Of a stretch of 64,000 bases of DNA, positions 20,083 to 64,000 are shown one piece after another. How positions within the stretch are numbered: position 1 is the stretch's first letter; every line of letters starts with the position of its first letter. Both the position numbers and the translations under genes were made by a program. The stretch lies in IMG/VR virus record IMGVR_UViG_3300048074_000065; one strand, 5' to 3'. This DNA is from a virus. Below the pieces are notes generated by a model. The model was not told the origin of the DNA. It saw only the letters and a program-made list of their open reading frames with translations, and did no database searches.

Positions 20083-20110
20083 TTCGGTATATGTTCTTAT
20101 CTACAGTCGG

Positions 20111-20335
20111 GTGTTCAGCAAATATGAGATCGAAACAACTCCTTGTGGTGTTTTCACCGAACACCAGCTGGCGGTTCAAGCTATTCCATTGAAAATTGTT
20201 TCATGGGAATGCACAGTTGTTGGCCATATATCAATGGACATAGCTAGGGATGTGAATGGAAATCTATGGACCATAATGGACTGTCAGAAAAATCTTTATT
20301 ACATCCCGCCCTATTATCAAGCGGAGGGTGAATGA
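20111..20335 (+). CDS. hypothetical small protein in an AT-rich insert (start uncertain)
   Basis: Open frame from the track ORF 20030-20335. GTG at 20111 is the first start after the upstream stop, and no clear RBS is present. Confidence 0.3.
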   Translation: MFSKYEIETTPCGVFTEHQLAVQAIPLKIVSWECTVVGHISMDIARDVNGNLWTIMDCQKNLYYIPPYYQAEGE

Positions 20336-26876: not shown

Positions 26877-27455
26877 GTGGATGATTATACCCCTACCAAA
26901 CGCTGTAGCAAATGCCACTGCGATTTTCCCGCCACTGATGAGTTCTTTTCTAAAGGGAAAAGATACAAGGATGGTTTGCGCGGACAATGCAAAACATGCC
27001 GTGCGGAATATAATCACGAATACAGGGTAAAAAATATCGAAAGAATAATTAACAGGGATCGTGATTACAGAGACAAGAATCGAGAATTAACCAGAGAGAG
27101 GGGAAGGGCGCATTATTATCGTCACCAGGAAGAAGTCAGAAGAAAAATGAACGCTCGTAGAAAAACTGAACATTACAGGATAATGAGAACGGCTGAAGCG
27201 CATCGTCGGAGAGCTAGAAAGCTGAATGCCACGGGGGTGCATTCTCGTGCTGATATATCCCTGATTTACCAACAGCAAAAGGGAAAATGTTGGTGGTGTG
27301 GCAAAAAATTAAACGAAACATATCATGTAGATCATCGCATTCCACTATCTAGAGGAGGAACTAATTGGCCAGACAATCTTGTGTTGACGTGTCCGCATTG
27401 CAATCTGAGCAAGAATAACAAAATGCCTCACGAATGGAATGGGAGGTTACTGTGA
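26877..27455 (+). CDS. HNH endonuclease, paralog of the 7424 and 21263 genes
   Basis: GTG start. CSKCHCDFPATDEFF...CKTC. Core CWWCGKKLNETYHVDHRIPLSRGGTNWPDNLVLTCPHCNLSKNN. AT-rich gene. Confidence 0.8.
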   Translation: MDDYTPTKRCSKCHCDFPATDEFFSKGKRYKDGLRGQCKTCRAEYNHEYRVKNIERIINRDRDYRDKNRELTRERGRAHYYRHQEEVRRKMNARRKTEHYRIMRTAEAHRRRARKLNATGVHSRADISLIYQQQKGKCWWCGKKLNETYHVDHRIPLSRGGTNWPDNLVLTCPHCNLSKNNKMPHEWNGRLL

Positions 27456-28156
27456 TGCGCGGTCAACTCTGTAGTGGAATGCTGGTCGATCTGGACGACG
27501 CCACCGCGCGCTATGGCGGCTCGTGGCAGGGCTACGCGGACGACTTGCTCCAGGCGTATGACCAGGGCGCGATCTGGGACTTCTGGACGCACGTCCAGGC
27601 CCTCGCTGAGCCGGTCGTGCTGGATGTCGGCGCGAATACCGGGAGCTTCTGTCTGCTGGCGAAGTTTCATCCGGGGATGCGCGTGTGGGCATTCGAGCCG
27701 AACTACGAAGTCCGCCAGGTGCTCGAACACAACGTCGCGCTGAATGAACTGGAGACGCGCGTCAAGGTGCTGCCCTACGCGGCACTGGATTACGTGGGCA
27801 GTGCGCTGTTGACCGTGCCCAACGACGATACGCTGTCGGGGCTGTCGTTTATCGACATACGACCTGCCAATCATATCTGTACGGTGAAAGAAGTGATGGT
27901 GCTTACCCTGGATGTGGTCACCTGTTCAGAGGGTATTACACACGTCGATGCCATCAAGATCGACGTGGAAGGCCGCGAGGAAGCGGTGCTGCGGGGTGGG
28001 GCAGAGATGATCCGGCGTGACCATCCCTTCCTATTCACTGAAGCGACCAATGTACAAAAACAACGCTCCCTGTTAGAATCCTGGGGATATACCGTGAACG
28101 CAGGACCACACGACATTCAATCGGTCTATGAAGCAAAAGGAAACTACTATGGCTAA
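27455..28156 (+). CDS. FkbM-family SAM-dependent methyltransferase
   Basis: VLDVGANTGSFCLLA, WAFEPN and IKIDVEGREEAVL. GGGAGG RBS and a TGATG overlap. Confidence 0.65.
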   Translation: MRGQLCSGMLVDLDDATARYGGSWQGYADDLLQAYDQGAIWDFWTHVQALAEPVVLDVGANTGSFCLLAKFHPGMRVWAFEPNYEVRQVLEHNVALNELETRVKVLPYAALDYVGSALLTVPNDDTLSGLSFIDIRPANHICTVKEVMVLTLDVVTCSEGITHVDAIKIDVEGREEAVLRGGAEMIRRDHPFLFTEATNVQKQRSLLESWGYTVNAGPHDIQSVYEAKGNYYG

Positions 28157-32672: not shown

Positions 32673-33689
32673 ATGATCGAGAGTCGCGGTTTTAACTACC
32701 TCCACTTCCGCAAATGGGCCTGCGATGGCTACAGTTATTACGCCATGTCGCAGATCAAAGCGCTGGCTCAGGTCGGTGCCAAGGTGTATCCCGGACTGCT
32801 CATGGAATTGGATGAGACGCCGGGCTGGTATAACTACCTGCGCGGGTTGGATATGACCCGCCTGAATGTGGTGCTTGCTCCCCCGCATGACCTGAAAGCC
32901 ATGCCGGGTCGGGTCTTCTCCAGCACCATGTACGAAAGCACCCGCATCCCCGACGACTGGGCGACCCATGTCAACACCAAAGCCGAACGCCTGATCGTCC
33001 CGTGTCAATGGTGTGCGGACGTATTTCGCGATAACGGCGTAACGACCCCTATTCACATCATTCCGGGGGGCGTCGATCCGGTGGAGTTTCCCGCCACGGG
33101 CATCCCCCTCCCGACCAACCGCCCTTACACCTTTCTGGCGTTTGGGGACCGGGGCAGCCGTAAGGGGCAGGACCTCGTGTGGGAAGCCTTTTACAACGTG
33201 TTCGGGGATAACCCGGACGTGCGCCTGATTGTCAAGACCCGGCAGGGTGGCCTCCCCTGGCTCTCGACGGCCAAGGGCGACCGGCGGGTGACCATCTGGC
33301 GCGAGGACGTGCCCCACATGGCGGACGTGTATGCGCATGTGGACTGCGTGGTCAATCCAACCAAAGGCGAAGGCTGGGGGCTGTTTCCACGGGAGGCGGC
33401 CTGCACCGGGAAACCGGTCATCTGCACCGCGTTTGGCGGAACCCTGGACGGCATCGAACACTGGGGCATTCCCATCGTCAATTATAAGATGGTCCCAGCG
33501 GCCATCCTGGGCGGCGGTGAGTGGGCCATGCCCGATGTCGAAGAAGTCGGCACGCACATGCGCTGGTGTTACGACCACCGCGAGGAAGCATGGCAGAAGG
33601 GTCAGCAAGCGGCGGTGTGGCTGCGTGAGCACCAGACCTGGCAGCATTCGGCCCAGCAGTTGATGACCTTGATTGAGGAGTGGGGCTAA
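32673..33689 (+). CDS. GT-B (GT4-like) glycosyltransferase directly downstream of the capsid gene
   Basis: EX7E in KGEGWGLFPREAACTGKPVI and the block FLAFGDRGSRKGQDLV. Confidence 0.65.
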   Translation: MIESRGFNYLHFRKWACDGYSYYAMSQIKALAQVGAKVYPGLLMELDETPGWYNYLRGLDMTRLNVVLAPPHDLKAMPGRVFSSTMYESTRIPDDWATHVNTKAERLIVPCQWCADVFRDNGVTTPIHIIPGGVDPVEFPATGIPLPTNRPYTFLAFGDRGSRKGQDLVWEAFYNVFGDNPDVRLIVKTRQGGLPWLSTAKGDRRVTIWREDVPHMADVYAHVDCVVNPTKGEGWGLFPREAACTGKPVICTAFGGTLDGIEHWGIPIVNYKMVPAAILGGGEWAMPDVEEVGTHMRWCYDHREEAWQKGQQAAVWLREHQTWQHSAQQLMTLIEEWG

Positions 33690-39894: not shown

Positions 39895-40284
39895 ATGAGC
39901 AGTTACCAGATCGTCGATGGCTACAACAACGCGGGCACGCTGGCGACCTTCAGCCCGCAACCGGCTTCGCCCGGCATTCTCTACCCGCGCCGTGACATCG
40001 CCGTGAGTGGGCATGAGTACGTCAACGGGCAGCCCTATACCTTCTGGCAGTACAAGGGCATCATCCCCGCCAGCCAGTACGATGCCCTGCTGACATTGTT
40101 CGGGTTGAGCAACACGGTCGTCTCCAACGAGGTGACGGTCAAGACCATGACGGACCCGGATCGCACCACCTGGGCCAACTACAACGCTATCATCGTGCTG
40201 CCGGTGAATGGGCAGGACGTGACCTACGAACGGGGCTTCTGGCGAGACGCGAAGTTCAAAGTCAAACTGGTGGCGGCGCTATGA
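39895..40284 (+). CDS. distal tail protein (putative)
   Basis: 129 aa, immediately after the tape measure. Confidence 0.4.
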   Translation: MSSYQIVDGYNNAGTLATFSPQPASPGILYPRRDIAVSGHEYVNGQPYTFWQYKGIIPASQYDALLTLFGLSNTVVSNEVTVKTMTDPDRTTWANYNAIIVLPVNGQDVTYERGFWRDAKFKVKLVAAL

Positions 40285-43118
40285 CGGTGACCTGGCGTGA
40301 TAAACCCTATTATTACGACGGATACATGGCCGTCCTGAACCCCGCGACGGTGCTGGCCGCGCAGGTGGACTATACCAACACGAATGGCAGCGGCAAACTG
40401 TCGGGCACGAGTATCTGGCAGTACGTCTTCTTCGATACGGTCACCGTTGGCGATACCTCGGCCACGGGCGTCGAAGCGGGCATGATGCTGACCATCGGCA
40501 GCAGCGCGGGTGCAGATGATCTGGGACGCTGCCGGGTGCGCGGCGTGACGACCGTCAACGTCAGCGGTACGGACTACACGGTGTTGATGGTCTGGGCCAG
40601 TCCCAACAAAGCGGACGGCGGGCTGTACATCTACAACACGACCATTTACCTGACCGTGCTGAATGATTTCCGAGTGTGGATGAAGGCCCCCTACTACATC
40701 GGCGCATCGGGCTACTTCGACGGCACCATCGGTCCTGTCCCCGCCACCTGGAAACCTGCGCCTAAAGCGAACGCGGGACCGGGCTATGCGGGCTTCGTGG
40801 ATGCCACTACCGGGCTGGCGACCGTCTCCTTCAGCGGGGCGGACAGTTATGCGACGGCGCGGGATGCGGTGCTGGGGGCGTGGGGGGCGGACATTGCCCC
40901 GACGGGCACCATCACCTCGTCGTCTGAGAACGGTACGAACTACGATCATCTGGTGGTCGATGGCAACAACACGACCTACTGGGAAGCGGCGACTGACCAG
41001 AATGAGTGGCTTAAATTTGTGTTTCCGGCAGCCAAGAAGATTAAGAAGTTTTCGATGACTTGCACGGGACTGTATGCTCCCCAGCAATTCAGGATTCGTC
41101 TCAACGCCCTGGGGTCCGGTGGCGAACTGATAGCCTATTATTACTCGACCGCCTGGGGAACGAATGAAACCCGCACCTTTTATATCGACTATGATTATCC
41201 CGATGGGGGAGTGACCACCTACTATTTGGATGTCCAAACCTCGGATGGCGGCGGGGCCTATCCCGTGCGCATCAAGGAAGTCAAGTTCTACGAAGAAGAT
41301 CGCACGACCGCTTACACGTGGTCCGTCGATGCCACGGTGACGATCACGGTCGGTTCGACCACCACCGAAGCCATTACCGCCACCTTCCCACCGGGCTGGC
41401 ACTTTGTCAAACTCACGGTGACGGATACCTTGAGCAGCACCGGGGTGGTGCGCGTGCCCGTATTTTGCAGTTATGCGCCGAACCTACCAGACCAGATTAC
41501 CAGCTACTCCAAGCTCTCGACCGCTGGAGCGACGTTCTTTGCGACCAACAACTCGGTGGGGTTCGGCCCTGAAAAGGCTTTCGATGGGTTGTACTCCAGC
41601 GCGAGCCACTGCTGGTTCACCTTATCTACCAACCCGCGCACCATCACGGGCTACATCGGGGCGACTTTGGCGACCTCGAAAACGGTGGGACGCTACACGG
41701 TGCGGTCGCCGCTGACCTACAACCGGTCTCCGAAGAACTGGACGTTCGAGTATCAGGTCGGGAGTACCTGGACGGTGGCCGATACACAGACTAATCAGGT
41801 CTATACCGCCGACTATCAGGAGAAGGTCTTTACGCTGACGACGCCGGTTACCGGGACCTCGTTCCGGCTCAACGTGACCCTCAACGGGGGCAACGCCGAT
41901 TACCTAGGCGTCTCTGAGTTCGAACTGCACGAACCGGTCTACACCGCGCGTCCGGCGCACGCCGACCTGATGACCGATGTCGAAGTGACCAATCAGGTGC
42001 TCAGTCTGGGTGGGCAAAAACTGTCGGTCATCATCCACGATGACCTGTCCGTGACGGACTACCCGGATGGCACGCTCGTGATGTACTGGGAGGACGAGTA
42101 TTACGGCGGCGTCAAGGGCAGCCTGACGACGGCGGGTCCGACCGGGCGCGAGCACGTCAAATTCATCGGGTGGATCGACACGGAACCGACCGAGATTGTG
42201 GCCGAGTCGTTCGACACTCGCACCAGCACGACTTTCGACTGCGTGGACGTGGGCGGACGCCTGGCGCAGCTCCCGGCCTTTTCGCTGATGTTCGAGCGGG
42301 TCACGACCACGCCGGGCTATCTGTATGAGCTGTACGGCGCGAACCTGGACCGCTGCATCTACGTGATGCTGCATTACATGTCCACCGCTTGCGAAGTGGC
42401 GGACTTCTACGGCACGCAGCTGGGCGATACCTGGGGCGTCAGCATCCTGGCCATGCAAAGCGGCACGCTGTTTTCGTCCATCGATGAACGGGCGCAAGCC
42501 ATTGCCTACCGCTTCACGTGCGACAAACTAGGACGGCTGCGACTCATCGAAGACCCGATGCTCAAGGGCACGACCGATCATGGGACCTCGGTTACCCTGG
42601 CCTTGACCGAAGCCGACTATTCGTCCTTGACCTTCACGCACACCCGCCCCAGCCGTTACCACTGGTTGTGGGGCAGTAGCATCGACACCTACCTGCTCGA
42701 AGTCAAAACCGACGTGTCGTTCTTTATCTCGACCTACTTCTGCGTGGTACCGGGCGAAACGCCAGGACAGGGAGCATCGTCGGAGGATCATGGCGAGCAG
42801 TTGGGCACCCAGTTCGAGCTGAACTGGCGCGAAGGGCACCGTTATGCCGCTCGGTTGAATGCCAACGACTCGAACCTGGAGATGGTCCTGTGCCATGCCG
42901 GGGATTACGGGCTGGACCCGGCGCAGATGATCTGGGTGAGTGTCACGTTGACCGCCGATCACGCCCCCGTGCGCGGGCGGACCTTTGCGGCCAAGCCCGC
43001 CTTGTTGTACGAAATGCGGATCGTGCATGATCACGCCGCCAAAACCAAAACCGTGTCGCTGACGATGGAGTTGGAAGTGTACGGCACGTCGGCAGTGACC
43101 TATACGCCTCCGGCCTAA
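40281..43118 (+). CDS. large tail tip/baseplate protein with two discoidin (F5/8 type C, CBM32-like) segments
   Basis: 945 aa. VVDGNNTTYWEAATDQNEWLKFVF and KAFDGLYSSASHCWFTL...KNWTFEY resemble discoidin-domain signatures. Confidence 0.55.
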   Translation: MTVTWRDKPYYYDGYMAVLNPATVLAAQVDYTNTNGSGKLSGTSIWQYVFFDTVTVGDTSATGVEAGMMLTIGSSAGADDLGRCRVRGVTTVNVSGTDYTVLMVWASPNKADGGLYIYNTTIYLTVLNDFRVWMKAPYYIGASGYFDGTIGPVPATWKPAPKANAGPGYAGFVDATTGLATVSFSGADSYATARDAVLGAWGADIAPTGTITSSSENGTNYDHLVVDGNNTTYWEAATDQNEWLKFVFPAAKKIKKFSMTCTGLYAPQQFRIRLNALGSGGELIAYYYSTAWGTNETRTFYIDYDYPDGGVTTYYLDVQTSDGGGAYPVRIKEVKFYEEDRTTAYTWSVDATVTITVGSTTTEAITATFPPGWHFVKLTVTDTLSSTGVVRVPVFCSYAPNLPDQITSYSKLSTAGATFFATNNSVGFGPEKAFDGLYSSASHCWFTLSTNPRTITGYIGATLATSKTVGRYTVRSPLTYNRSPKNWTFEYQVGSTWTVADTQTNQVYTADYQEKVFTLTTPVTGTSFRLNVTLNGGNADYLGVSEFELHEPVYTARPAHADLMTDVEVTNQVLSLGGQKLSVIIHDDLSVTDYPDGTLVMYWEDEYYGGVKGSLTTAGPTGREHVKFIGWIDTEPTEIVAESFDTRTSTTFDCVDVGGRLAQLPAFSLMFERVTTTPGYLYELYGANLDRCIYVMLHYMSTACEVADFYGTQLGDTWGVSILAMQSGTLFSSIDERAQAIAYRFTCDKLGRLRLIEDPMLKGTTDHGTSVTLALTEADYSSLTFTHTRPSRYHWLWGSSIDTYLLEVKTDVSFFISTYFCVVPGETPGQGASSEDHGEQLGTQFELNWREGHRYAARLNANDSNLEMVLCHAGDYGLDPAQMIWVSVTLTADHAPVRGRTFAAKPALLYEMRIVHDHAAKTKTVSLTMELEVYGTSAVTYTPPA

Positions 43119-43120
43119 CC

Positions 43121-43414
43121 ATGATTACACGTGATGAAGTGCGCAGCTTGATCCGGGATAAACTGGCCCATGCCAAGTTTATGAACTACATCCCCGCCGT
43201 CATGGGGCGCTTCGATGGGGGAAGCACTTACACCTTTACGGTACCCGGTGGACGGGGGTATACTTATGTCAGGATCATCCAGAGTGGCAGCCCGATTACG
43301 CTGACGAAAGCGCTCAACCGGGCGGGCATTGCCAACACGGGCGATCTCCCGATCTGGTTGGACTATGACGCCGATGGACGGCTGATCATTATCTCCGCGA
43401 GGTTTACCGGCTGA
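43121..43414 (+). CDS. small protein (97 aa) with an LAxTG-like IANTG motif 23 residues from its C-terminus
   Basis: ...KALNRAGIANTGDLPIWLDYDADGRLIIISARFTG*. Its stop overlaps the sortase start (TGATG). Confidence 0.5.
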   Translation: MITRDEVRSLIRDKLAHAKFMNYIPAVMGRFDGGSTYTFTVPGGRGYTYVRIIQSGSPITLTKALNRAGIANTGDLPIWLDYDADGRLIIISARFTG

Positions 43415-43911
43415 TGAAACGTGGACTGTTCCTGATTTTACTACTGCTCACCCTGGGAGGGACTGCCCCCGCGTCCAGTACCGAACAGCCGTTGGGTATG
43501 CTGCTGATTCCGTCGATTCAATTGACGCAGCCCATCTATGAACGGATGGAAACCAACGGCGTGTTGGACTTGAACACGCTGGGGACGCGCGTGGCCCATT
43601 ATGGGGGGACGGGCTGGTTGAACACGGGCTACAGTCCCATCATTTTGGTCGGGCATCTAGCGCTCTTGGAAAAGCGACCGGGAGCCTTCTATCGGCTCTC
43701 CGAAGTTAACGTCGGGACGCGGATCATTGTATCTGATACCAGTGAGAGCGCCTGGTTCCGGGTCACTTCCTCCTATGTCACCGATCCGTCGGACGCCGAC
43801 GTGCTGCGATTACAGCCCGTAGCGGCGGGCACCGAGCGTATCGTCCTGATTGCCTGCGAGGGCGCTGACGGAGAACGGCGGCGCATTGTCATAGCGGAAA
43901 GGTCGAACTAA
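43414..43911 (+). CDS. sortase-family transpeptidase (class E/F-like) with an N-terminal signal/anchor
   Basis: MKRGLFLILLLLTLGG anchor. LLIPSIQL...ILVGH (His), IVLIAC (Cys) and ERRRIVIAE (Arg), in the order and spacing of sortase catalytic motifs. Confidence 0.6.
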   Translation: MKRGLFLILLLLTLGGTAPASSTEQPLGMLLIPSIQLTQPIYERMETNGVLDLNTLGTRVAHYGGTGWLNTGYSPIILVGHLALLEKRPGAFYRLSEVNVGTRIIVSDTSESAWFRVTSSYVTDPSDADVLRLQPVAAGTERIVLIACEGADGERRRIVIAERSN

Positions 43912-43912
43912 T

Positions 43913-44854
43913 ATGGGACCTGGATTTACAGTGTCGAAAGCGCCGAACATGGGCGTGCCGGGGATGGGGAGCGGGGGAGAACTTAATATCTCTTGCCCTG
44001 CCATTACCCCGACTGTCGGACCAACCGAATTATTGACCAATCCCGGCTTCGAGACAGCGGGCGCGGGAAGTCCAGATGTTTTTGCGCAGTGGTCCGAAAC
44101 CGTCGCGGGGGCATCCACGATCAACGACGAAACGACCGTCATTCACGGCGGTAGCCATGCCTGCCGGATGGATATTGACGGGTCCAATAGCAATGCCCAA
44201 ATAACCGCTGGGGTTTTGACGACTCACAAATGGTATCAATATTCCTTGTGGGCGAAAGCAGCGAGCGGCACGCCTACTCTCAGCATGGGCGTCTCGATTG
44301 CTAATTATCTCTGCACGTTGAGTACCACCTACCAGCAATTCATGACGACCCAGCGCGCGCCGAATGCCAATCTGAGCATCTTTCGATCCACCGCAACCAG
44401 CAACTCACTCTATATTGATGATACCTCATGTCAAGAAATTGCGTTCGCGACGATGCACGCCAAGTTGGGCCAACGACTGATCAGGCCGGGAACGTATACC
44501 TGTCATCCGACAGTGGCGGCGGGAACCTGCGCGGGGATGCTGATCTCCTATCTGAATGACAGTAATTTCGTGATGGCTTTGATTTATAACGGCCTGGCGA
44601 CCGTCTATGTATCGCTTTTGTCCTGCGCGGCGGGCACCTACACCGCCAAGATCGCCTATAGCACCATCTCCTACACCGCCGCTGCTGAACTCAAGGTGGT
44701 GATCAACGCCTCCAATTATTCCCTATTCTACAAGGGCATCCAAATCGGCACGACCCAGGCCATTGACGATAGCGGCATGGGGCTGGAAGTGCATGGTTGG
44801 ACCACCTACGCTGCTAATTCTGTAGGGCAGGTGACAACCGGTCCCGGTACCTGA
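43913..44854 (+). CDS. tail fibre/receptor-binding protein with a CBM4/9-like jelly-roll (putative)
   Basis: LLTNPGFETAG...WSE...GGSHACRM...YQYSLWAKA is typical of CBM_4_9-type modules. Gly-rich N-terminus MGPGF...GMGSGG. Confidence 0.45.
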   Translation: MGPGFTVSKAPNMGVPGMGSGGELNISCPAITPTVGPTELLTNPGFETAGAGSPDVFAQWSETVAGASTINDETTVIHGGSHACRMDIDGSNSNAQITAGVLTTHKWYQYSLWAKAASGTPTLSMGVSIANYLCTLSTTYQQFMTTQRAPNANLSIFRSTATSNSLYIDDTSCQEIAFATMHAKLGQRLIRPGTYTCHPTVAAGTCAGMLISYLNDSNFVMALIYNGLATVYVSLLSCAAGTYTAKIAYSTISYTAAAELKVVINASNYSLFYKGIQIGTTQAIDDSGMGLEVHGWTTYAANSVGQVTTGPGT

Positions 44855-44860
44855 ACGTTC

Positions 44861-45742
44861 TTGGCAGGGTTCACCGGAACGGTGGCCGACTTCCTGGCCC
44901 TGCCTGCTGACGGTGATGATTTTACCCTGGTGTATTTGCCGGATACGCAGATGTACCCCTTGCACCTGACAGCCTACATGGCGGATCAAATCAACTGGAT
45001 CGTCGCACAGCAAGCGGCGCTGAATATCCAATTTGTGATGCACGAGGGGGATATGGTGGACAGCGTCACCTGGGAACAATTGGACTTTGCCCAGGCAGCG
45101 ATGGCCCCCTTGCAAACGGCGCATGTCCCGACCCTGATCGCGCCGGGCAATCATGATTATCTAGGGGCGTACACGCTGCGCGATTTGACCAATTGGAAGA
45201 GTCGCTTTCCGGCGACGTGGTACACCGATCAGGCGTGGTTCGCCGGGGGTTTTTACAATAACGAACACTCCAACGTCTATTGTACTCGGACGATTGGCAG
45301 TCGAAATTATATCTTTATCGCCCTGGAATATTACCCGCGCGCTGAGGTCTTGACGTGGCTGGCGGGCGTGCTGGACGCTCATCCGTCGCACGCGGCGATC
45401 CTGGTAACCCATGCCTACATGCGGGCGGCGAATGATATGATGGTCGAAGGTTCGGGGATACGTGAAGTCGTTGCACAGCACGGCACGCCATTGCTGATAG
45501 GCAGTGGGCATTTTATCGTGGTGCCATCCGATCCGGTGGGAGATCGCATGGATTGGCTCGGCAGCGGTCAGCGCCTTATCCAATTTATCATCAACTACCA
45601 AGATATGCCGAACGATGGTGAGGGCTATTTAAGGATCATCAAGGTCAAGCCCAGCGTCAAGGCGATGCTGCACCAGACCTACAGTCCCACCCTGGACACC
45701 TATAACACGGGCGCGGAGTATGAGTTTGTGAGTGCGTGGTAA
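44861..45742 (+). CDS. calcineurin-like metallophosphoesterase
   Basis: Motifs YLPDTQ, HEGDMVD, APGNHDY and LVTHAYM. TTG start with no clear RBS, so the start is uncertain. Confidence 0.6.
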   Translation: MAGFTGTVADFLALPADGDDFTLVYLPDTQMYPLHLTAYMADQINWIVAQQAALNIQFVMHEGDMVDSVTWEQLDFAQAAMAPLQTAHVPTLIAPGNHDYLGAYTLRDLTNWKSRFPATWYTDQAWFAGGFYNNEHSNVYCTRTIGSRNYIFIALEYYPRAEVLTWLAGVLDAHPSHAAILVTHAYMRAANDMMVEGSGIREVVAQHGTPLLIGSGHFIVVPSDPVGDRMDWLGSGQRLIQFIINYQDMPNDGEGYLRIIKVKPSVKAMLHQTYSPTLDTYNTGAEYEFVSAW

Positions 45743-45883: not shown

Positions 45884-46570
45884 ATGGACTTAGCCAAAGC
45901 AATTCAAGAGGACGGCGGCTGGATAGCTTTAGCTGTCATTCTGACGTTGTTGTTCTTAGTGTTACTGGTGTGGGCGATGGTCAAGCTAATCACCACGCGC
46001 GATAAATCCGCCGACGCCGTGACTATCCAGGCCGAATCCAACGCCGATATAGTCCGGGCGCTGGTGGAGCCATTCGCCCAATTCGTGACACAACTTCAAT
46101 CTGTGAGCCAAACCCAAATCACGATCAGCAAAAGTCAGCAGGTGCTCGGCGAACAGATGCAAACCCTCGCCAACTGCCTGATTGATCATGAGGCGCAATC
46201 GAAGGCGGACCGTGAATCAAATGTCCTGTTGGTTCAACAAACGAAGACCACAGTGGAGGCCAACGCAAAGTTAATTGCGGCGGTACCAGGGCAGGTGAAA
46301 GCAAGTATGGCCGAAGATTTCGAGCGCATCAACAAACAGTATGATGACGTGAAAGACGTTATCAAAACGCAGGCGGATAACCTCGTCGCCATTGATGGCA
46401 AGATTACCTTGCTCATCAACCGTCTGGACGAAGTGCCGCCCCAAACCGCCGCCGTGTTGCGCGGTGACTTGAGCGAACTCAAGGCGCTGGTGATGGGATT
46501 AGCCGCCAAACTGGAACGAGTACCGCCCCAGCCGCCCGCCGTAGTAGAGGAGAAGCCCGCCGATGAGTGA
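45884..46570 (+). CDS. membrane-anchored coiled-coil protein (holin/lysis accessory candidate)
   Basis: A single N-terminal TM segment (WIALAVILTLLFLVLLVWAMV) is followed by a long helical region. Confidence 0.4.
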   Translation: MDLAKAIQEDGGWIALAVILTLLFLVLLVWAMVKLITTRDKSADAVTIQAESNADIVRALVEPFAQFVTQLQSVSQTQITISKSQQVLGEQMQTLANCLIDHEAQSKADRESNVLLVQQTKTTVEANAKLIAAVPGQVKASMAEDFERINKQYDDVKDVIKTQADNLVAIDGKITLLINRLDEVPPQTAAVLRGDLSELKALVMGLAAKLERVPPQPPAVVEEKPADE

Positions 46571-47081
46571 CCAACTGGTAAGTATCGCCCCCTGGATCGC
46601 CTTTGCCGTGCTCGCCCTGCTGATCTGGCTGTGGCGGCGTTATGGCTCCGCTACCGAAATCAGCGCCCTGGTCGAGTCGGTCGTGCCTGATGAGTTTGAC
46701 GACGTGGCAGAATACCTCGTCTCCCTGGCAGTGTCAGTGGTGGACCAGCGCATCAAAGCCTACGAAGCCCTGACCAACGCCGAGCGGTTGGCGCTTGCGA
46801 AAAAATACGCCGCCGCCTTGCTGGATTATTCCGGTCGTAATCTGTCCGATGTGGCAATGGAAGCCCTCATTGAGGAGGAGTTGTGGCTACGGCATCAGGT
46901 GACGGACGAACCGGTGAGAGAAGTCAACATTGCCGACACGCCGCCCAAACCTGCCGAGGGTTGGCAAGCCGTGACGACCTCGGCCTATGTACCGCCGGAG
47001 ATGACAACCCCTGAGTGGGCACCTGGCGACGGACCTAACAAGGAAGTCTCAGCCGAGATACTGGCGGAGTTGAAGCCTTGA
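46563..47081 (+). CDS. membrane-anchored protein (holin/lysis accessory candidate)
   Basis: A single N-terminal TM segment (IAPWIAFAVLALLIWLW). ATGA overlap. Confidence 0.4.
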   Translation: MSDQLVSIAPWIAFAVLALLIWLWRRYGSATEISALVESVVPDEFDDVAEYLVSLAVSVVDQRIKAYEALTNAERLALAKKYAAALLDYSGRNLSDVAMEALIEEELWLRHQVTDEPVREVNIADTPPKPAEGWQAVTTSAYVPPEMTTPEWAPGDGPNKEVSAEILAELKP

Positions 47082-47148
47082 CAGCCCGCCGCTACCGTCG
47101 CAACCCGCACACCTGGATATTCTGGCGCTGTATGCTGCGAGGCCGCCG

Positions 47149-48432
47149 ATGAAACGTATCCTCTCTTTCGCTCTCATCTTCGTGGCGCTGTGGCTCTCTG
47201 CTCCCGTGCTGCGCTCCGCCGGGCAGGGTGCGCCGACACCCACGCCCGCCAAAGTCCCGTACATCATGCTCTATGAGGATGGGACGTGGGGATATATCAC
47301 GCCAACACCGGAAGGACCGACCGCCACGCCGACGGAAATCTTTGCGACTCCCAACGTGACTGCAGTACCCAGTTGGACGCCTGGGCCAACTGCCACGCCG
47401 CTGCCACTGTGTGGGGGCCTGACGACCGCCGACACCCTCAATGGACGCGACACCCCGCGGGGTAACGTGATCGTCCAATTCGAGAAGGGTACCGCGGTAG
47501 GCATTTCGGTCGGCCAATGGTACAACCATCTCGGCACCTGGGAACTGTGGTACAAGGCCACGGCTAACGGCAAGTCGGTTTGGTTGCTGTCGGATTACGT
47601 CGCGCTGAGTCCGGGCGCGGTGTGCGACTTCCCCGCCAAGCCGGTGACGACTAGCCTCCTGGGCCTGCACCTGCTACCGGGAGCCAGTGGGGCGGTCGTT
47701 GACCGTGCGTTGCCTGAACTGGGCAACCTCAAGGGCATTGATGGCAATGAGCCACTTTTACAGGCCGCGAAATCACAGCGGCCTGATCTTTTACTGGTCT
47801 ATCGCAACCTGTTCAACGCTTACGGCCAGCGCGATTATCCGCTGTCCTGGGGGCAGGGAGACGCGCGGGCGGTCGCTGATAGCTGGTGGGCCGCACAGTA
47901 CCACGTCTGGGAGACGCGCGGGCTATTGGGGCTGGTCGATTACTTTGAGGTCATCAATGAGGCGGGCTATCCCGGATCAGCGTGGGATAACGCGTTCTGG
48001 TTGCGAACTCTCGACAATGCCAAGTCTGCCGGGCTGTGCTTGGCGATCTACTCGGAGAGTTATGGTACACCAGAGATTACAGCCTATCAATTCCGCACGC
48101 CCGTGCTTGACCGTTTGCTGTCCGAAGAATGCCGCCCTGGAAAGCATCACATTATCGCGCTGCACATCTATGAGGGCGTGGCGGGCGGGGATTGGAAGTT
48201 CGGACGATGGAAACTCTTTCTCCAGGCGCTTGGGCCGAAGTACAACGCGCTGCGCTGGTATGTCAGCGAGTACGGATATTCCAAAGGCACCGGGGCGGTC
48301 GATTGCGCAGCGTTTCGGGCGGATTGGACGCAGGCAGAAAAAGCGTTCGCCCAGGCGGGCGACATCCTGGGCGTGGCAATCTTCGCGGTGGGTGGGCAGG
48401 GACAGTGGTCAGATTTCAGCTCGTGCTTCTAA
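47149..48432 (+). CDS. secreted clan GH-A-like glycoside hydrolase with an SH3-like domain (endolysin/depolymerase candidate)
   Basis: Signal peptide MKRILSFALIFVALWLSAPVLRSA and Pro/Thr linkers. FEVINE (acid/base NE) and YVSEYGY (nucleophile E) are in the spacing expected for a TIM barrel. Confidence 0.5.
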   Translation: MKRILSFALIFVALWLSAPVLRSAGQGAPTPTPAKVPYIMLYEDGTWGYITPTPEGPTATPTEIFATPNVTAVPSWTPGPTATPLPLCGGLTTADTLNGRDTPRGNVIVQFEKGTAVGISVGQWYNHLGTWELWYKATANGKSVWLLSDYVALSPGAVCDFPAKPVTTSLLGLHLLPGASGAVVDRALPELGNLKGIDGNEPLLQAAKSQRPDLLLVYRNLFNAYGQRDYPLSWGQGDARAVADSWWAAQYHVWETRGLLGLVDYFEVINEAGYPGSAWDNAFWLRTLDNAKSAGLCLAIYSESYGTPEITAYQFRTPVLDRLLSEECRPGKHHIIALHIYEGVAGGDWKFGRWKLFLQALGPKYNALRWYVSEYGYSKGTGAVDCAAFRADWTQAEKAFAQAGDILGVAIFAVGGQGQWSDFSSCF

Positions 48433-55686: not shown

Positions 55687-56754
55687 TCACATAGTCATTT
55701 CCATCGGAAGCGATAGTTGTCGTTCGTCCGGTAGACCCAGGTGGGGAGTGGAGACCGTTTCACGCCAGGCGTGCATCACGTTGACGCACGAGCGTCGGAA
55801 GGCTTCATAACATCCATCCTCGCCGATAAAACCATCGGTCTCACTCAGTTTGGGCCACCAACGCACGCGCCCGACTCCGGTATTCGCCCAGTACTGGGCA
55901 TAGTCAAACGCCATTTTCTGGATATAGTTGCAATCGACACTCCAGACGTTCAACACGCGATAAAGTTCCATCTGTTTTTCGGGACTGCCACCCAGCAGGT
56001 GTACCGGCCAACCTTCAAACTCGTGCAGGGGCACGGTGGTTCCGGCGAACTTGGTAGGGATGCTGTAACCGAGTCGCACGGGTTTGCCGCCAACGTTGCG
56101 CGGCAACTGCTGAATACCGCCATGCACTTTAGGAATGATCACCACCGTCTGTACATATCGCGCCGCCTCTTCGGCCCAGGACAATACCTCGTCTAATTGT
56201 TCGGGACGTTCCCAGTCCAGCACTGTGGCCAACTGGGGGTGTTGTTCAGCCAACGCGGTCATATAGCGCTCCCGGTTGGGAGTTTTCCAATTCTGATCGG
56301 CGAAGTAAGGACGAAACCCCGTCCCGTTCGGTAACTGTGCCCCATAAAGCATCCCGGCATCAATGGCAACCCGCGCCGCGCGCGGGTTGCCATCAGCGCA
56401 GTAGATGACTTCTAAATTCCCGACATTGGGGCGGCGCATTCTCTGCTTCAATGATTTCCGCCAGCACAGTAACATTCGTCCGTTGTTCGTCCATTCCGCC
56501 TTTTCGACATGAAACCCACGCCGGGTATACCAAGCATTGGCGGGCAAATCAGCGGGGCACTTCGCGAACAGGGAGGTAGCGCCTTTGACAGACTCTAAGC
56601 GTCTCAGCATTAATGCCCCTGCTCCTGGTCGCGTGCTGATGATCTCGCGTATGGTAAGTTGTCCATCGCGGCGGAGATGCCAATGACACATGCCGCCCCC
56701 CACGAGCATCAACTCTCCTTTTTGCGAACTGTCATGCAGTGTCTCGAAGATCAT
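55687..56754 (-). CDS. fusion protein: N-terminal GNAT-like acetyltransferase fold plus a C-terminal TGT/DpdA-like (transglycosylase superfamily) domain
   Basis: GNAT signs: TRPGAGALML and WYTRRGFHV. TGT-like signs: IPKVHGG (compare GIVQGG) and PVHLLGGSPEKQMELYRVLNVWSVDCNYIQKMA (compare RYLMGVGxPxDL..GxDMFDCVxPTRxAR). Confidence 0.4.
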   Translation of the reverse strand: MIFETLHDSSQKGELMLVGGGMCHWHLRRDGQLTIREIISTRPGAGALMLRRLESVKGATSLFAKCPADLPANAWYTRRGFHVEKAEWTNNGRMLLCWRKSLKQRMRRPNVGNLEVIYCADGNPRAARVAIDAGMLYGAQLPNGTGFRPYFADQNWKTPNRERYMTALAEQHPQLATVLDWERPEQLDEVLSWAEEAARYVQTVVIIPKVHGGIQQLPRNVGGKPVRLGYSIPTKFAGTTVPLHEFEGWPVHLLGGSPEKQMELYRVLNVWSVDCNYIQKMAFDYAQYWANTGVGRVRWWPKLSETDGFIGEDGCYEAFRRSCVNVMHAWRETVSTPHLGLPDERQLSLPMEMTM

Positions 56755-58890: not shown

Positions 58891-60327
58891 CTAATCCCGC
58901 CCATAGACCAGCGGGAGGTCTAACTCTTCATGGCTTTCAACGGCGGGCAGTTCGGTTTTGGGATCATGCGTAATCGACACCGTGGTGCGCCGCAGGTTGC
59001 CGACCAGCATCCGTTCCTTCATAAAGTAGGCCGGGATAGTGCCGGTGGGTCCGTTGCGGTGTTTGGCGACATCCAACTCGACCACGTTGGGTTGGGTCGT
59101 ATTTTCATCGTAATAATCATCGCGGTACAGCAAAATCACCACGTCGGCATCCTGCTCAATCGCGCCGCTCTCTTTGAGGTGGTGCAGCGAGGGGCGCTTA
59201 TCTTTCTGCCCTTCCACTTCCCGGTTGAGCTGCGCCGCCGCGATGACGGGGATGTGGAGTTCCTTGGCCAGCGCCTTGAGACCGCCCGAAATCAGCGCCA
59301 CTTCTTCGGCCCGACTGTTGCCGCGTCCATCCCCCGCCATGAGTTGCAGGTAATCGACCATCACGAAATCCAGGGGCTTCTGGTTGTCGTAGCGCTTGGC
59401 AATGGCGCGCAGGGCGGGCAGGGTCAGGGCCGGGGTTTCGTCGATGAGCAGCGACCAGGACTTTTTGAACACCATGGTCTGCGCATCCAGCAGGGCCTTT
59501 TCATCGGGCTTGACGCGCCCGGTGCGCTGCTGCTGGACGGTGACGCCCGTTTCGATGCACAACAAGCGCTGGACGCACTGCTTTTTGGGCATCTCCATCG
59601 ACAACAGCAGCCCGTGCTTCTTTTCCTCTTTGACCATGTGGGTGATCATCGACATGATCAGGGCTGACTTGCCCATGCCCGGACGCCCGGCCAGGACGAT
59701 GAAATCCGCCGGTTGAAACCCCCCCGTCAGGTTGTCCAGGTCGATGATGCCGGACTTCAACCCGCTGCACCCGTTGAGGATGGCCTGGTCCACGTCGTCG
59801 AGCACGTCGTCGGCAATATCCCCGATGCTCTGCGTGCCCTCGTTGGGGTTGCTGGTGACGGAGACGGTGGCCACGGCGGTTTCGCAGTCGGCGACCACCT
59901 CTTCGATGGGCTTGCTTTCGTCGTAGGCCAGTTGGGCGATGCGGCTGGCAGCATTCAAGAGACGGCGACGGGTGGCCTTGTTGTAGATGTTCATGCCATA
60001 GGTGAAGGCGGCGGACCGGTCCATGACGGAGAACAGGCCCTCCTGGGAGTTGATCAGGCGGGTCAGGTAGGGCCAGCCGCCCACTTCGTCCAGGCGTCCA
60101 TCGGCTTTGAGTTGTTCGCCCACGGTGGTGTAGGTGATTTTTTCACCCCGTCCGGCAATGCGCAGCGCCGCGTCGAATATCCAGCCATGCCGCGTGACGA
60201 AAAAGTCGTCGCTGGTGAGTTTGGCCGGGAGGGCGTACACATTGTCGGACTCCACGATCAGGGCTTCGAGCAGCCGTTCTTCGCTCTCCTGGGCGTGGAG
60301 CATGGGGATGGGAGTCGGCGTCGTCAT
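58891..60327 (-). CDS. dnaB: replicative DNA helicase DnaB
   Basis: 478 aa. Walker A GRPGMGKSALIM. Blocks DYLQLM and SRAEEV..ISGGLKALAKEL..PVIAAAQLNR. ATGA overlap with the upstream gene. Confidence 0.85.
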   Translation of the reverse strand: MTTPTPIPMLHAQESEERLLEALIVESDNVYALPAKLTSDDFFVTRHGWIFDAALRIAGRGEKITYTTVGEQLKADGRLDEVGGWPYLTRLINSQEGLFSVMDRSAAFTYGMNIYNKATRRRLLNAASRIAQLAYDESKPIEEVVADCETAVATVSVTSNPNEGTQSIGDIADDVLDDVDQAILNGCSGLKSGIIDLDNLTGGFQPADFIVLAGRPGMGKSALIMSMITHMVKEEKKHGLLLSMEMPKKQCVQRLLCIETGVTVQQQRTGRVKPDEKALLDAQTMVFKKSWSLLIDETPALTLPALRAIAKRYDNQKPLDFVMVDYLQLMAGDGRGNSRAEEVALISGGLKALAKELHIPVIAAAQLNREVEGQKDKRPSLHHLKESGAIEQDADVVILLYRDDYYDENTTQPNVVELDVAKHRNGPTGTIPAYFMKERMLVGNLRRTTVSITHDPKTELPAVESHEELDLPLVYGRD

Positions 60328-61277
60328 GCGATGTCCTTTTCTGCCGGGGCCATACAGCGCGGGCACGGCATCATCGAGTTGTAGTCTGGGTGACCATACG
60401 GGACGGCAGGCTTGACGTGACCGGCACCGCCACAGACGGGACAGTGCGCGTCGGGCTTACGGGCGGTGAAAACTGTCTGCTGATGCGCTTTCACCCAGGG
60501 GTAAAAATGTTTCACGAACGTCTCAAATCCCTGGGGAACATCGGCGGACTTGTATTGCTGCTTCCAGTCCTCGGCAAACTTCTTGAAATGCTCCAGTTGA
60601 ACCGGAACGTCGCAACCGTCAATAGTTCGACTGTTCCCGTTTTTGCCGATCACTACGTCCTTGCCAAGCGACCAGGACCAAATACGCCCTGCTTGGGCCG
60701 CCACCGCACTGGCGCTGGGAGTGCCTGGCTTCTGCCCAAAAATATGCTCTGAAATGGCATCAATCCAGGGGTTTGGCTTGCGTTGGCGTTTGGGCTTTTC
60801 AGCGGGCGACCCACACTGATCCTGCTTTTTAGGATCAGTAGAGAGAGTCTCAGTAAAGGTGCTGCCAACTTGGATAGAGAGTGATTCCAACTTGGTATCA
60901 CCCCCCTCCTGGGGTTCGGTGGTCACTTGGTCCAATTTCGAGTAGTCGATGCTATACCAATTTCGGCACCCGCCCTTAGCTTTGGGTTCCGCCACTTCCT
61001 TGCGCAAGAGCACGCCAGATTCTTCCAGTTCGGCAATAGTGCGCCGAATGGTTTGTACGGACCAGAACGGGAAGTTGTCTTTCTTCCAATCGGCGTAGCT
61101 TCCATACGTCCACCAATGCCCCTCAAAGAACTTGGTTTCATCGTGGGCCTTCTCAGCCAATTTGATCCAGAAATGAATCTGCTGGAGCAAGATGCTCGCG
61201 TTGAGACCGATCTTACAGGCCAGCGTTGGGCAGACTTGCAGGGGTTGTTCGTCAATTAGAAGTTTGTTGGTAGCCAT
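60324..61277 (-). CDS. replication initiator/replisome organizer (winged-helix N-domain, C-terminal zinc ribbon)
   Basis: WWTYGSYADWKKDNFPFWSVQTIRRTIAELEESGVLL resembles phage replisome-organizer N-domains. C-terminal CPVCGG...CPRC. It precedes dnaB. Confidence 0.5.
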   Translation of the reverse strand: MATNKLLIDEQPLQVCPTLACKIGLNASILLQQIHFWIKLAEKAHDETKFFEGHWWTYGSYADWKKDNFPFWSVQTIRRTIAELEESGVLLRKEVAEPKAKGGCRNWYSIDYSKLDQVTTEPQEGGDTKLESLSIQVGSTFTETLSTDPKKQDQCGSPAEKPKRQRKPNPWIDAISEHIFGQKPGTPSASAVAAQAGRIWSWSLGKDVVIGKNGNSRTIDGCDVPVQLEHFKKFAEDWKQQYKSADVPQGFETFVKHFYPWVKAHQQTVFTARKPDAHCPVCGGAGHVKPAVPYGHPDYNSMMPCPRCMAPAEKDIA

Positions 61278-63046: not shown

Positions 63047-64000
63047 TCAACTATTGGTGGTTTTCAGTCGATCTTCAATCATCGGCCACAGTTTCGGCCC
63101 GATGTCCTGACCGTCCAGCCGGTTGAACAGCAGCGGTGCAATGTCCCGGTGGTTGGCCATCACCCAGATCGCGAACTCTTTGCGGGTGTCTTTGGGCGCT
63201 TCTCGATAGGCCAGGTCCACCGCATGACGAATGGCGTCATACTCGACGCGCACCTGGGCTTCCCAGATCGCCACCTGTTCTGCAAATTCTTCTGGCAACT
63301 CCGCCTTCATGTGGTCGAGTGTGTTCTCTCGGATGGCTTGCAAGACGGATTTCAGAGAGAGTCCGGTGATGAGACGGTGCAGCTCCAGGTAGCGGTCGCC
63401 TTTAATCTTCCATCGACTGCCGTCCGACATCTCAATGACCCAACCCTCATGTTCGCCGTCCAGGGTTCCTGCCGCTTCCAGGATGGCAGCAATGTTGTTG
63501 AAGGCGCAGACCTGGGGCGTGCCAAATCCGTACTTCCAGGCCAGCTCCGTGACGCCAGTATTGCGTCCCATCGGAAAGAACGGCAGATAGCGACCGTTGA
63601 AGCGGTTGCGCGCGGCCAGCAGCACGAGGTCTTCGAGGTCGCCGTAGTCCAGCACGACACGATTTTCTGGGTAGATGATCTCGAACAGCAGGGTCAGCGC
63701 CGGGTCCAGGTCGGACAGGTCCCAGCCTTTCAGGAACTCGGTGGCCCACAGCGCTTGCTCCCCGGTGAAACTGCCGCGCGTGGCGATGCGAAAGCCGGAG
63801 TCGGTGCGGTAGAGGATGCCGAGTGACCCATCCATTTTCTCGGTGCAGGTGTCAATGTGACCGGTGCCTTTCAGCCCGCGTTCGCCCCAGTTGAAGAACT
63901 TGTCGAAGGGGCGGGCGACGACTTCACCGGTCACGCGGTTGAGGATCAGCCCGCGCGACATGACTTCGAACGGTCGTTCCCAGGTGGCATCACGGTCATA
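63047..64000 (-). CDS. ATP-dependent RNA ligase (Rnl1-like), 5' end beyond the right edge
   Basis: Motif I EKMDGSL, motif III FEIIYPENRVVLDY, and motifs IV/V HEGWVIEMSDGSRWKIKGDRY. The frame stays open upstream of the listed Met to position 64000. Confidence 0.65.
   Translation of the reverse strand, partial: YDRDATWERPFEVMSRGLILNRVTGEVVARPFDKFFNWGERGLKGTGHIDTCTEKMDGSLGILYRTDSGFRIATRGSFTGEQALWATEFLKGWDLSDLDPALTLLFEIIYPENRVVLDYGDLEDLVLLAARNRFNGRYLPFFPMGRNTGVTELAWKYGFGTPQVCAFNNIAAILEAAGTLDGEHEGWVIEMSDGSRWKIKGDRYLELHRLITGLSLKSVLQAIRENTLDHMKAELPEEFAEQVAIWEAQVRVEYDAIRHAVDLAYREAPKDTRKEFAIWVMANHRDIAPLLFNRLDGQDIGPKLWPMIEDRLKTTNS

Follow-up and report, generated by a model that had tools for sequence, protein, structure and literature searches.

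The window, which is the whole 64,000-nucleotide stretch of DNA analysed here, contains a siphovirus-like genome encoding a terminase, head, major tail and tape-measure-sized proteins, and a DnaB helicase. It has no tRNAs and no PADLOC match to a defence system, and there is no integrase among the approximately 30 of its ORFs covered by a non-exhaustive scan. A sortase gene lies in the late tail operon, between the tail genes and the lysis genes, and the features of the region are as follows.

40281..43118, + strand: 945-residue tail-tip protein with F5/8 type C (discoidin) domains (Pfam PF00754/PF22633; phrog_17517, 'tail protein')
43121..43414, + strand: 97-residue small protein of the tail module, without a signal peptide (family of 90–99-residue proteins without a known domain)
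43328..43342, + strand: IANTG, a candidate sorting-like motif at residues 70–74 of the small protein (conserved in aligned relatives)
43414..43911, + strand: 165-residue sortase of an unclassified clade (Pfam, TIGRFAM, PDB alignment, AF2, Foldseek)
43414..43476, + strand: predicted Sec-type signal peptide of the sortase (MKR, hydrophobic core, TAPA↓SS; read by eye from the sequence)
43654..43656, + strand: codon of catalytic His81 (ILVGH; invariant in 28 homologues, aligned with the His of 8t28 and 2xwg)
43855..43857, + strand: codon of catalytic Cys148 (VLIAC; invariant in 28 homologues, aligned with the TC motif of solved sortases)
43882..43884, + strand: codon of Arg157, third of the catalytic residues, where the last strand begins (aligned with the conserved Arg of 8t28)
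43913..44854, + strand: 313-residue fibre-like protein (N-terminal tag common to fibres of related phages)
44861..45742, + strand: 293-residue calcineurin-like metallophosphoesterase (Pfam PF00149, 26.9 bits against a cutoff of 21.5)
45884..48432, + strand: putative lysis/envelope block (weak Holin_LLH match; N-terminal hydrophobic segments)

The three ORFs for the small protein, the sortase and the fibre were correctly placed in the earlier note, as was the translational coupling of the first two: the TGA stop codon of the 97-residue ORF overlaps the ATG start codon of the 165-residue ORF at 43414 (...GGCTGATGAAA). Gene spacing around 43414–43911 is tight, with no convincing flanking promoter or terminator. 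The metallophosphoesterase gene follows the fibre gene and precedes the lysis-like genes, and the block at 45884..48432 encodes a 228-residue membrane-anchored protein (coiled-coil-rich by eye), a 172-residue holin-like protein and a 427-residue protein with a Sec signal peptide. A TerL match to 'Methanosarcina virus MetMV' was considered as a clue to the host and rejected, since it is the only substantial match, the others being short, weak matches to a DNA-methylase region; the GC content is 58% against 42% in MetMV, and the host assignment of MetMV is itself computational only.

The product of 43414–43911 had been described as carrying sortase hallmarks in canonical order, and the profile searches bear this out far beyond chance, with a match to Pfam PF04203 (E = 1.2e-16; 61 bits against a cutoff of 26.6) and another to TIGR01076 (39.8 bits; cutoff 39.35). 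The best PDB sequence matches are sortases, and His81, Cys148 and Arg157 line up with their catalytic residues, in the order His, Cys (TLxTC-like), Arg when aligned to 8t28 and 2xwg. Structure prediction and a Foldseek comparison, suggested earlier as a check, agree. An AF2 model built from only two aligned sequences was unusable (pLDDT 46.6), and when the prediction was repeated with a 28-sequence alignment the pLDDT was 86.8 and all 50 of the top Foldseek matches in the PDB were sortases (TM 0.64–0.70, E about 1e-10), in agreement with the eight-stranded beta-barrel fold of that superfamily. Both His81 and Cys148 are invariant across 28 sortase homologues, and Arg157 is replaced by Leu in one phage-sortase subclade. 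The gene is under purifying selection (dN/dS against the related lineage L002 is 0.16) and forms a fixed part of the late tail operon in an uncultured clade of siphovirus-like phages. We conclude that 43414–43911 encodes a genuine, minimal sortase with its His/Cys/Arg set intact, a predicted Cys transpeptidase.

This sortase does not belong to a familiar class. The alignment by eye with class E that the earlier note offered cannot be sustained, and class E membership was rejected: with the corresponding model, NF033747 (LAxTG-specific), the score is 22.7 bits where 160 are required, and all the class models stay below their thresholds. The best class score comes from the class C (pilin) model NF033745, at 36 bits against 160; classes D (25.8 bits) and F (24.7 bits) have cutoffs of about 165, and the models for classes A, B and GN give no listing at E ≤ 0.1. 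When the class models were run on the nearest sortase relatives, every class failed. Two features of class C, a lid segment and a membrane anchor at the C-terminus, are both absent: the protein ends directly after the last barrel strand, and its catalytic domain begins about five residues past the signal peptide. On these comparisons the clade matches none of the described classes A–F or GN.

The supposition that there is no described phage system of this kind also stands. PHROGs has no family matching the sortase, there is no relative among the cultured phage genomes of INPHARED or in 50,697 deposited phage records, no structural match to the fold is present among the BFVD viral structures, and we found no description in the literature on viruses of an exported sortase in a phage tail operon. 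A search of the 185,579 species genomes of GTDB with the small protein and the sortase as queries gave no related sortase copy and no prophage relatives, and scans of metagenomes and viral contigs added only three loci (L022, L026 and L027). The phage lineages share between 28 and 75% identity in their sortases, and the clade appears to be old within these phages. Cellular sortase relatives have a long anchor and linker instead of the short signal peptide, and one of them (L028) is without a neighbouring substrate from which the motif of the clade could be read.

The signal or anchor helix reported at the start of the 165-residue ORF proves to be an N-terminal export signal conserved in every full-length lineage. 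All full-length homologues have a basic n-region, a hydrophobic core of 12–17 residues, a Pro/Gly break and an AxA-like site, and an n/h/c arrangement with a small −3 residue and an Ala at −1 recurs in L002, L011, L014, L015, L018, L023, L024, L027, P0174 and P0175; the remainder of the N-terminal segment diverges while these features stay. The AF2 model places a helix at residues 3–13, and by the −3/−1 rule, read by eye, the signal peptide is of the cleavable type. We infer that the sortase is exported via Sec, and the signal peptide is probably cut off. A signal peptide would be easily lost if the enzyme acted in the cytoplasm. To our knowledge the known sortases are tethered to the membrane, and a free, unanchored sortase is therefore atypical.

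The arrangement of a protein of about 95 residues followed by a sortase is present in 11 of 12 evaluable related phage lineages (the window, L002, L011, L014, L015, L017, L018, L023, L024, L027 and the P0183 contig), and the sortase is carried by this phage and at least ten related lineages. The position is always at the end of the conserved tail-tip genes and before variable fibre genes or lysis genes. The gene for the 945-residue tail-tip protein is the conserved immediate upstream neighbour of the pair at all related loci, with synteny in L002, L011, L012, L014, L015, L023 and L024. In most lineages the order is small protein, sortase, fibre, with overlapping stop and start codons. L017, L018 and the P0183 contig lack a fibre gene at this place, and small TM or holin-like genes stand next to the sortase instead; in L017 and L018 TM proteins homologous to those of the window's 45884..48432 block follow the sortase directly.

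The reading that we favour, tentatively and while holding it to be somewhat short of probable, is of an exported late enzyme that acts in the host envelope and for which the 97-residue protein is not an obligate substrate. The sortase would be made late in infection and exported by Sec, and with its signal peptide probably removed it would become a free enzyme outside the cytoplasmic membrane, where in its mature form it would cleave or transfer envelope proteins bearing its sorting motif. Candidate targets are host wall-anchored surface proteins or their precursors, and the outcome would be a stripped or remodelled surface of the infected cell around the time of lysis; the possible benefits are the removal of receptors that trap progeny, a block to superinfection, or the loosening of a proteinaceous wall layer. 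The 97-residue protein would be a tail-module component in a common operon, its synteny with the sortase inherited. A circumstantial link between the sortase and the envelope or lysis is provided by the holin-like and TM neighbours in L017, L018 and the P0183 contig, and by the exported 427-residue protein.

Several points sit uneasily with action in the envelope. A sortase strictly adjacent and coupled to a small protein whose TG is nearly invariant, and fibres that all start with Met-Gly, are just what one would expect of a cassette of enzyme, substrate and nucleophile; there are no prophage copies in the GTDB species genomes, and the free sortase that this reading needs would be atypical. 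A rival explanation, which adapts the model of the earlier note to the topology and is in our estimation unlikely, is that the sortase cuts the 97-residue protein between T73 and G74 and joins T73 to Gly2 of the fibre (after removal of the Met), covalently locking interchangeable fibres on a conserved adaptor. The N-terminal tag of the fibre would, on this explanation, already be docked beside the motif loop. The order of adaptor, sortase and fibre with overlapping codons in most lineages speaks for ligation, and no classical sortase substrate is encoded by the phage, which suits the envelope reading as well: a search of the window for motifs with a hydrophobic stretch behind them, in which basic residues were also counted, gave only weak matches or matches in non-coding frames.

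The small protein itself argues on both sides. It has no Pfam, PHROG, NCBIfam or PDB (profile search) match and its dN/dS against L002 is 0.17; 16 homologues were found, and 21 distinct sequences were aligned. As the earlier note had it, IANTG occupies residues 70–74, with 23 residues following. The form (I/V)(A/P/T)xTG is retained in 18 of the 21 sequences and the TG pair in 20, T73 and G74 each being present in 20 of 21. At position 70, 20 of the 21 have I or V; position 71 holds A in 16, P in two and T in two, and position 72 varies more than any other in the block. Two members read VPNTG. All of this would suit a sorting motif with a variable X. There are three matches to [LIV][AP]xTG in the about 19,500 residues of the window, so that a single occurrence is not special, and of the three only IANTG is conserved in relatives; the IAPTG at residue 205 of the 945-residue tail protein is not conserved and was treated as a chance match. 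The flanks on both sides of the motif are conserved as strongly as the motif, and its conservation pattern suggests that the block is flanked by strand-like segments. The tail (DLPIWLDYDADGRLIIISARFTG) is acidic and strand-like, in keeping with the earlier remark that it is not a typical hydrophobic and basic anchor. Five of its positions (L76, W79, G86, I90 and R94) are invariant, which is unlike a sorting tail that is discarded, and the 23 residues after the TG resemble structural strands and not a leaving peptide.

Several lineages also break the association of motif and enzyme. The small protein of L012/L013 keeps a VAETG, and the 14-kb contig on which the locus lies is devoid of a sortase; conversely, in L024 the sortase is present with its Arg intact and the small protein reads GAGDDNTL at the site, with no TG. 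In P0013 and L022 an insertion of three residues abolishes the −3 and −2 positions of the motif. The N-terminus of the small protein (MITRDEVRSLIRDKLAHAK) is hydrophilic and without a signal peptide, and likewise across the family. The proposal that the 97-residue protein is a sortase substrate is thus supported by the conserved motif, its variable X and the adjacency of the pair, and is opposed by the missing signal peptide, the conserved tail, and the lineages L012/L013 and L024.

The fibres likewise bear on ligation in both directions. The start MGPGF...GMGSGG of the 313-residue protein had been pointed out and is confirmed, and about 24 of its N-terminal residues (MGPGFTVSKAPNMGVPGMGSGG) form part of a short tag common to otherwise unrelated fibres of related phages (consensus MGxSLxVLGxPGLLGGG; present in L002, L014, L015, L024 and the second downstream gene of L011). 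Against its counterpart in L001 the N-terminus is conserved and the body is only 26% identical. The earlier description of the protein as CBM-like did not hold up, there being only a sub-threshold ConA-like match (E 0.016) and no PDB sequence match. All eight fibres located directly after a sortase begin with Met-Gly, compared with 7 of 90 background genes, and the fibre of the sortase-less lineage begins with Met-Ser; these starts favour ligation, but because the fibre N-termini are homologous the eight are not independent events. The three lineages in which no fibre gene comes after the sortase (L017, L018 and the P0183 contig) also speak against ligation. Neither the fibres nor the small protein have a signal peptide, whereas the sortase always has one, and ligation in the cytoplasm is therefore disfavoured topologically; with the sortase exported, the reaction could only take place on tails already assembled, at the time of lysis or later. 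A specific form of this explanation, likewise unlikely, is that outside the cytoplasm, once virions are assembled, the exported sortase welds interchangeable receptor-binding fibres, each tagged by a short N-terminal peptide that starts with Gly, to a conserved 97-residue adaptor that it cuts at (I/V)AxT↓G.

It is improbable, in our assessment, that the sortase is an accessory lysis factor, exported before holin action in the manner of a Sec-dependent endolysin and cutting peptide links in a protein layer of the wall (an S-layer, a sheath or wall-anchored proteins), thereby letting the endolysin complete lysis. The TM or holin-like genes adjoining the sortase in three lineages fit such a role, as do the co-exported 427-residue signal-peptide protein at the expected place of an endolysin and predicted expression from the late operon, but fibre genes intervene before the lysis-like genes in the window and in most relatives, the 427-residue protein has no recognisable lysin domain, and we know of no sortase that acts as a wall hydrolase. 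This explanation also overlaps with that of action in the envelope, and sequence alone cannot separate the two. A host-derived sortase carried as a lysogenic-conversion moron by a temperate phage, altering the surface of the lysogen by anchoring host adhesins or pili, is very improbable: sortase genes do occur in some deposited 'phage' records from Firmicutes, but these are short unannotated contigs unrelated to the clade, and the gene is without its own promoter or terminator and packed in a late tail operon, has no related copy in the GTDB species genomes, belongs to a clade long resident in these phages to judge from the divergence between lineages, and is accompanied by no integrase in the non-exhaustive scan.

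The phage sortase can be compared with several known systems. It resembles class C and E/D sortases (A. oris SrtC2, 8t28, and SrtC1, 2xwg; Streptomyces SrtE1, 5cuw; C. perfringens SrtD, 4d70) in its predicted fold (TM 0.64–0.70) and in the order of its elements, namely the IP-x-I strand, H-x-x-GT, GH, L-x-TC and Arg, but it is only 15–27% identical to them, its best class score is 36 bits against 160, it has neither a lid nor a C-terminal anchor, and it carries a short signal peptide of the cleavable type and not a signal anchor with a linker. Sortases paired with a single target are known, an example being the class GN 'marine' sortase TIGR03784 and its adjacent target (TIGRFAMs/NCBIfam descriptions). 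The phage module is similar in that a small sortase stands beside one particular conserved gene in many genomes; unlike those targets, the 97-residue neighbour has no signal peptide and no C-terminal hydrophobic and basic tail, and the TIGR03784 model does not match the window sortase.

For action in the envelope there is a possible parallel in T5 Llp and the Cor proteins of phi80 and N15, which are exported receptor-blocking lipoproteins encoded beside receptor-binding genes. They share with the sortase the property of an exported phage protein from the tail-fibre region, and the idea that a surface change may protect progeny or exclude superinfection, but the sortase is an enzyme without a lipobox and has no relation to them in sequence or fold, so that the analogy would be functional only. 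If fibres were ligated, the closest likeness would be the isopeptide cross-linking of the HK97 capsid, which also makes a covalent bond between virion proteins but is autocatalytic and cytoplasmic. We know of no dedicated ligase and no sortase chemistry in virions.

Sortases are considered cellular enzymes, used for the most part by Gram-positive bacteria in building their surface; the tail operon of a whole phage group conserves a distinct clade of them. Whatever its target, it would represent a new type of phage-encoded extracytoplasmic enzyme, and the mature protein, predicted to be soluble and very small at about 140 residues, may interest protein engineers. If host surface proteins are stripped, as the envelope reading proposes, the activity would be novel in kind, destroying receptors or helping lysis. 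Were the fibres instead to be ligated, it would be the first enzymatic covalent step in phage-tail assembly known to us, an enzyme-catalysed extracytoplasmic maturation of the tail and a natural form of "sortagging" through which receptor-binding proteins may be swapped.

The sortase gene has a phage setting and lies in a compact run of genes extending from the 945-aa tail protein (40281) to the 293-aa phosphoesterase (44861), with gaps of 0–6 bases between neighbors and no convincing promoter or terminator found near the sortase gene by pattern scan. The principal features are as follows.

11404–12837, + strand: large terminase
31496: major head protein
35363: major tail protein
36610: 1094-aa protein of tape-measure size
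40281: 945-aa tail protein with discoidin domains
43121–43414, + strand: small protein, 97-aa ORF
43414–43911, + strand: sortase, 165-aa ORF, its ATG overlapping the TGA of the 97-aa ORF
43913–44854, + strand: fibre, 313-aa ORF
44861–45742, + strand: 293-aa calcineurin-like metallophosphoesterase, between the fibre and the lysis-like genes
45884 and 46563: holin-like and membrane proteins
47149–48432, + strand: 427-aa protein with a clear Sec signal peptide and a Thr/Pro-rich linker

The three ORFs, the TGA/ATG overlap and the LAxTG-like IANTG motif of the small protein (residues 70–74, with 23 residues between it and the C-terminus) are all located where the earlier note had placed them, and the exact sortase sequence is also found in metagenomes, on contigs as long as 73.7 kb. 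The metallophosphoesterase is present in the window's lineage and absent from the related locus L002. The 427-aa protein, which has no match in Pfam, PHROG or PDB, keeps the same length in L002 and in a second related locus, L001, and is in the position expected of an endolysin. A leftward early block (55687–56754, 58891–60366 and 63047–63961, − strand) encodes a DUF6610 protein, also found in L001, a DnaB-type helicase and a T4-type RNA ligase; there is no integrase among the window ORFs scanned. The packaging and structural block also contains a sugar-nucleotide and glycosyltransferase set (16798–23043, 27434–28156 and 32673–33689, + strand) comprising a UDP-glucose/GDP-mannose dehydrogenase, an NAD epimerase/dehydratase, two GT1-family transferases, a methyltransferase and a GT4 that is directly 3′ of the major head gene and is kept in L001, L005 and L024; this set suggests modification of the virion or of host glycans.

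Several lines of evidence identify the 165-aa protein as a sortase. First, Pfam family PF04203 matches residues 31–162 with 61 bits, above its gathering score of 26.6, and TIGR01076 is barely above its threshold (39.8 vs 39.35). Second, the best PDB sequence matches are sortases, with the catalytic His (ILVGH81), Cys (LIAC148) and conserved Arg (R157) aligned. Third, an AlphaFold model built from 28 homologues (pLDDT 86.8, pTM 0.79; two sequences gave a pLDDT of only 46.6) has nothing but sortases, from classes A, C, D and E, among its best 50 Foldseek PDB matches (TM 0.64–0.70). Finally, no polar residue other than His81 and Cys148 is invariant among the 28 homologues, and dN/dS is 0.16 relative to a 75%-identical relative. 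The proposal of a sortase with His, Cys and Arg in order is thus borne out, but its assignment to class E is not, since the protein gets 22.7 bits with the class E model, where the cutoff is 160. No other sortase class model comes near its cutoff. HMMER, run exhaustively against 1.84 billion representatives, returned just 274 matches at E≤0.001, of which 12 reached E≤1e-10; the ten nearest likewise fail with every class model. One subclade of the phage sortases (proteins P0168–P0173, P0175, P0176 and P0179; loci L011, L014, L015, L017, L023 and L027) has Leu in place of the canonical Arg that follows the catalytic Cys (TC-x-[E/D]-R-G-x-T-W-L), and the conserved Arg three residues past the Cys is possibly a relocated catalytic residue.

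When the small protein and the sortase were used as separate queries and the contigs of the matches were read, the same gene order was found in eleven lineages (the window, L002, L011, L014, L015/16, L017, L018–20, L023, L024, L027 and the P0183 contig): a tape-measure-sized protein, a 125–141-aa protein, a 910–1153-aa discoidin tail protein, a 90–99-aa protein and the sortase. Identity between lineages is as low as ~46% for the small protein (lower still in L024) and ~28% for the sortase. The region 3′ of the sortase is variable, with unrelated fibres of 260–624 aa in some lineages and small membrane proteins resembling the start of a lysis block in L017, L018 and the P0183 contig. The L012/L013 lineage has a 778-aa fibre directly 3′ of the small protein and no sortase within its 14 kb; two more loci end at the small protein and were excluded from the scoring of sortase presence.

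All full-length homologues begin with 1–3 basic residues, a 12–17-residue hydrophobic core, a Pro/Gly break and a small-x-Ala site (e.g. APA|SS, VEA|AP, AHA|AP, VRA|DG, TGA|QE and VHA|TA), and the first barrel strand starts no more than about five residues beyond it. This conserved N-terminus argues for selection for export, and probably for signal cleavage as well. More distant relatives, including L028, for which a cellular gene context is shown, have instead an anchor of greater length, plus 50–100 residues of Thr/Pro-rich linker. In L017 (2573–3350) a 128-aa ORF with a signal peptide and an extra ~100-aa domain lies in another frame directly 5′ of a signal-less sortase domain, and may reflect a frameshifted fusion, a split gene or an assembly error.

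That the sortase is intact, that it is expressed late together with tail genes and that its export is conserved are all either established or strongly inferred. Action in the envelope is the simplest reading, and we favor it tentatively. No protein with a classical sorting signal is encoded by the phage in a scan of the window, and the exported enzyme would act in the infected cell's envelope on proteins already present. Free sortase could cleave the sorting signals of host surface-protein precursors, and already anchored proteins too where the anchor regenerates the motif, such that the cell surface would be stripped or remodelled shortly before or during lysis. Possible benefits are that progeny do not stick to debris, that superinfection is excluded, or that a protein layer of the wall is more easily dismantled. 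In other phages, T5 Llp and Cor are exported proteins that are encoded beside receptor-binding genes and act on the infected cell's surface, although they are binders rather than enzymes and have no sequence relation to the sortase.

It seems unlikely that the sortase covalently attaches fibres to the tail at IANTG, with the small protein as its substrate as the earlier note had proposed, notwithstanding several features that fit. T73 and G74, between which the cut was proposed, are each present in 20 of 21 distinct small-protein sequences, Ile or Val occupies position 70 in 20 of 21, position 71 is Ala (16), Pro (2) or Thr (2), position 72 varies more than any other in the motif block, and two family members have VPNTG. 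The pattern [LIV][AP]xTG occurs just three times in ~19,500 residues of the window, neither of the other two copies being close to a C-terminus and that of the 945-aa tail protein lacking conservation. All eight fibres directly 3′ of a sortase start with Met-Gly, compared with 7 of 90 genes overall, although these starts are not independent observations because the fibre N-termini are homologous; the fibre of the sortase-less lineage starts with Met-Ser. Six fibres from five lineages, with otherwise unrelated bodies, have in common an N-terminal tag of ~17 residues, MG-x-S-L-x-V-L-G-x-PG-L-L-GGG. Copies of the tag are located at window 43913–43985, L002 10500, L014 9154, L015 7640, L024 10495 and L011 12256. 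In the window fibre, Met-Gly recurs in frame at residue 13, and one annotation took this as the start.

Against such attachment, the small protein and every fibre lack the export signal that the sortase carries, and the enzyme and its proposed substrates are therefore made on opposite sides of the membrane. Moreover, L012/L013 retain VAETG without a sortase, L024 has a sortase with the Arg in place yet GAGDDNTL at the motif site, and P0013 (a homologous protein) and L022 have a three-residue insertion immediately before TG. Conservation also runs past the scissile bond (L76, W79, G86, I90 and R94 are invariant) into a tail that looks like two beta strands flanking a D-x-D-G-R turn, whereas in true sorting signals the determinants precede the cut and a generic tail, hydrophobic and basic, follows it. 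The pairing of small protein and sortase is real and intriguing, but an obligate enzyme–substrate relation at IANTG is not established and appears doubtful. A variant of the envelope reading in which the sortase purely assists lysis is improbable.

The window has no tRNAs, and none of 185,579 species genomes contains a related copy. Over 80% of its length the window TerL shares 47% identity with its counterpart in 'Methanosarcina virus MetMV', a metagenomic virus whose host was assigned in silico only (PMC7164591); beyond TerL the matches are short, weak and in a DNA-methylase region, and GC content is 58% in the window vs 42% in MetMV. A bacterial-type DnaB, Sec/SPase-I-type signals and ~58% GC would fit a host that is a high-GC bacterium with a sortase system, although this is a guess.

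The sortase has no PHROG match at E≤0.1, its model has none among BFVD viral structures at E≤0.001, and tblastn with it and two relatives found none in 50,697 phage records; full-text literature searches turned up no description of a phage-encoded sortase. A canonical class-C-like query does match 18 INPHARED 'phage' records (including H31–H45) from Listeria, Enterococcus, Staphylococcus and faecal viromes, but these have no relation to this clade and could well be host DNA; the listed ones all lack annotation, and most are short contigs. Novelty lies in the clade, in its minimal secreted form and in its fixed site in a phage tail operon, the enzyme family itself being known already. Sortase-catalysed covalent attachment of fibre to tail would, if true, be of very high interest.
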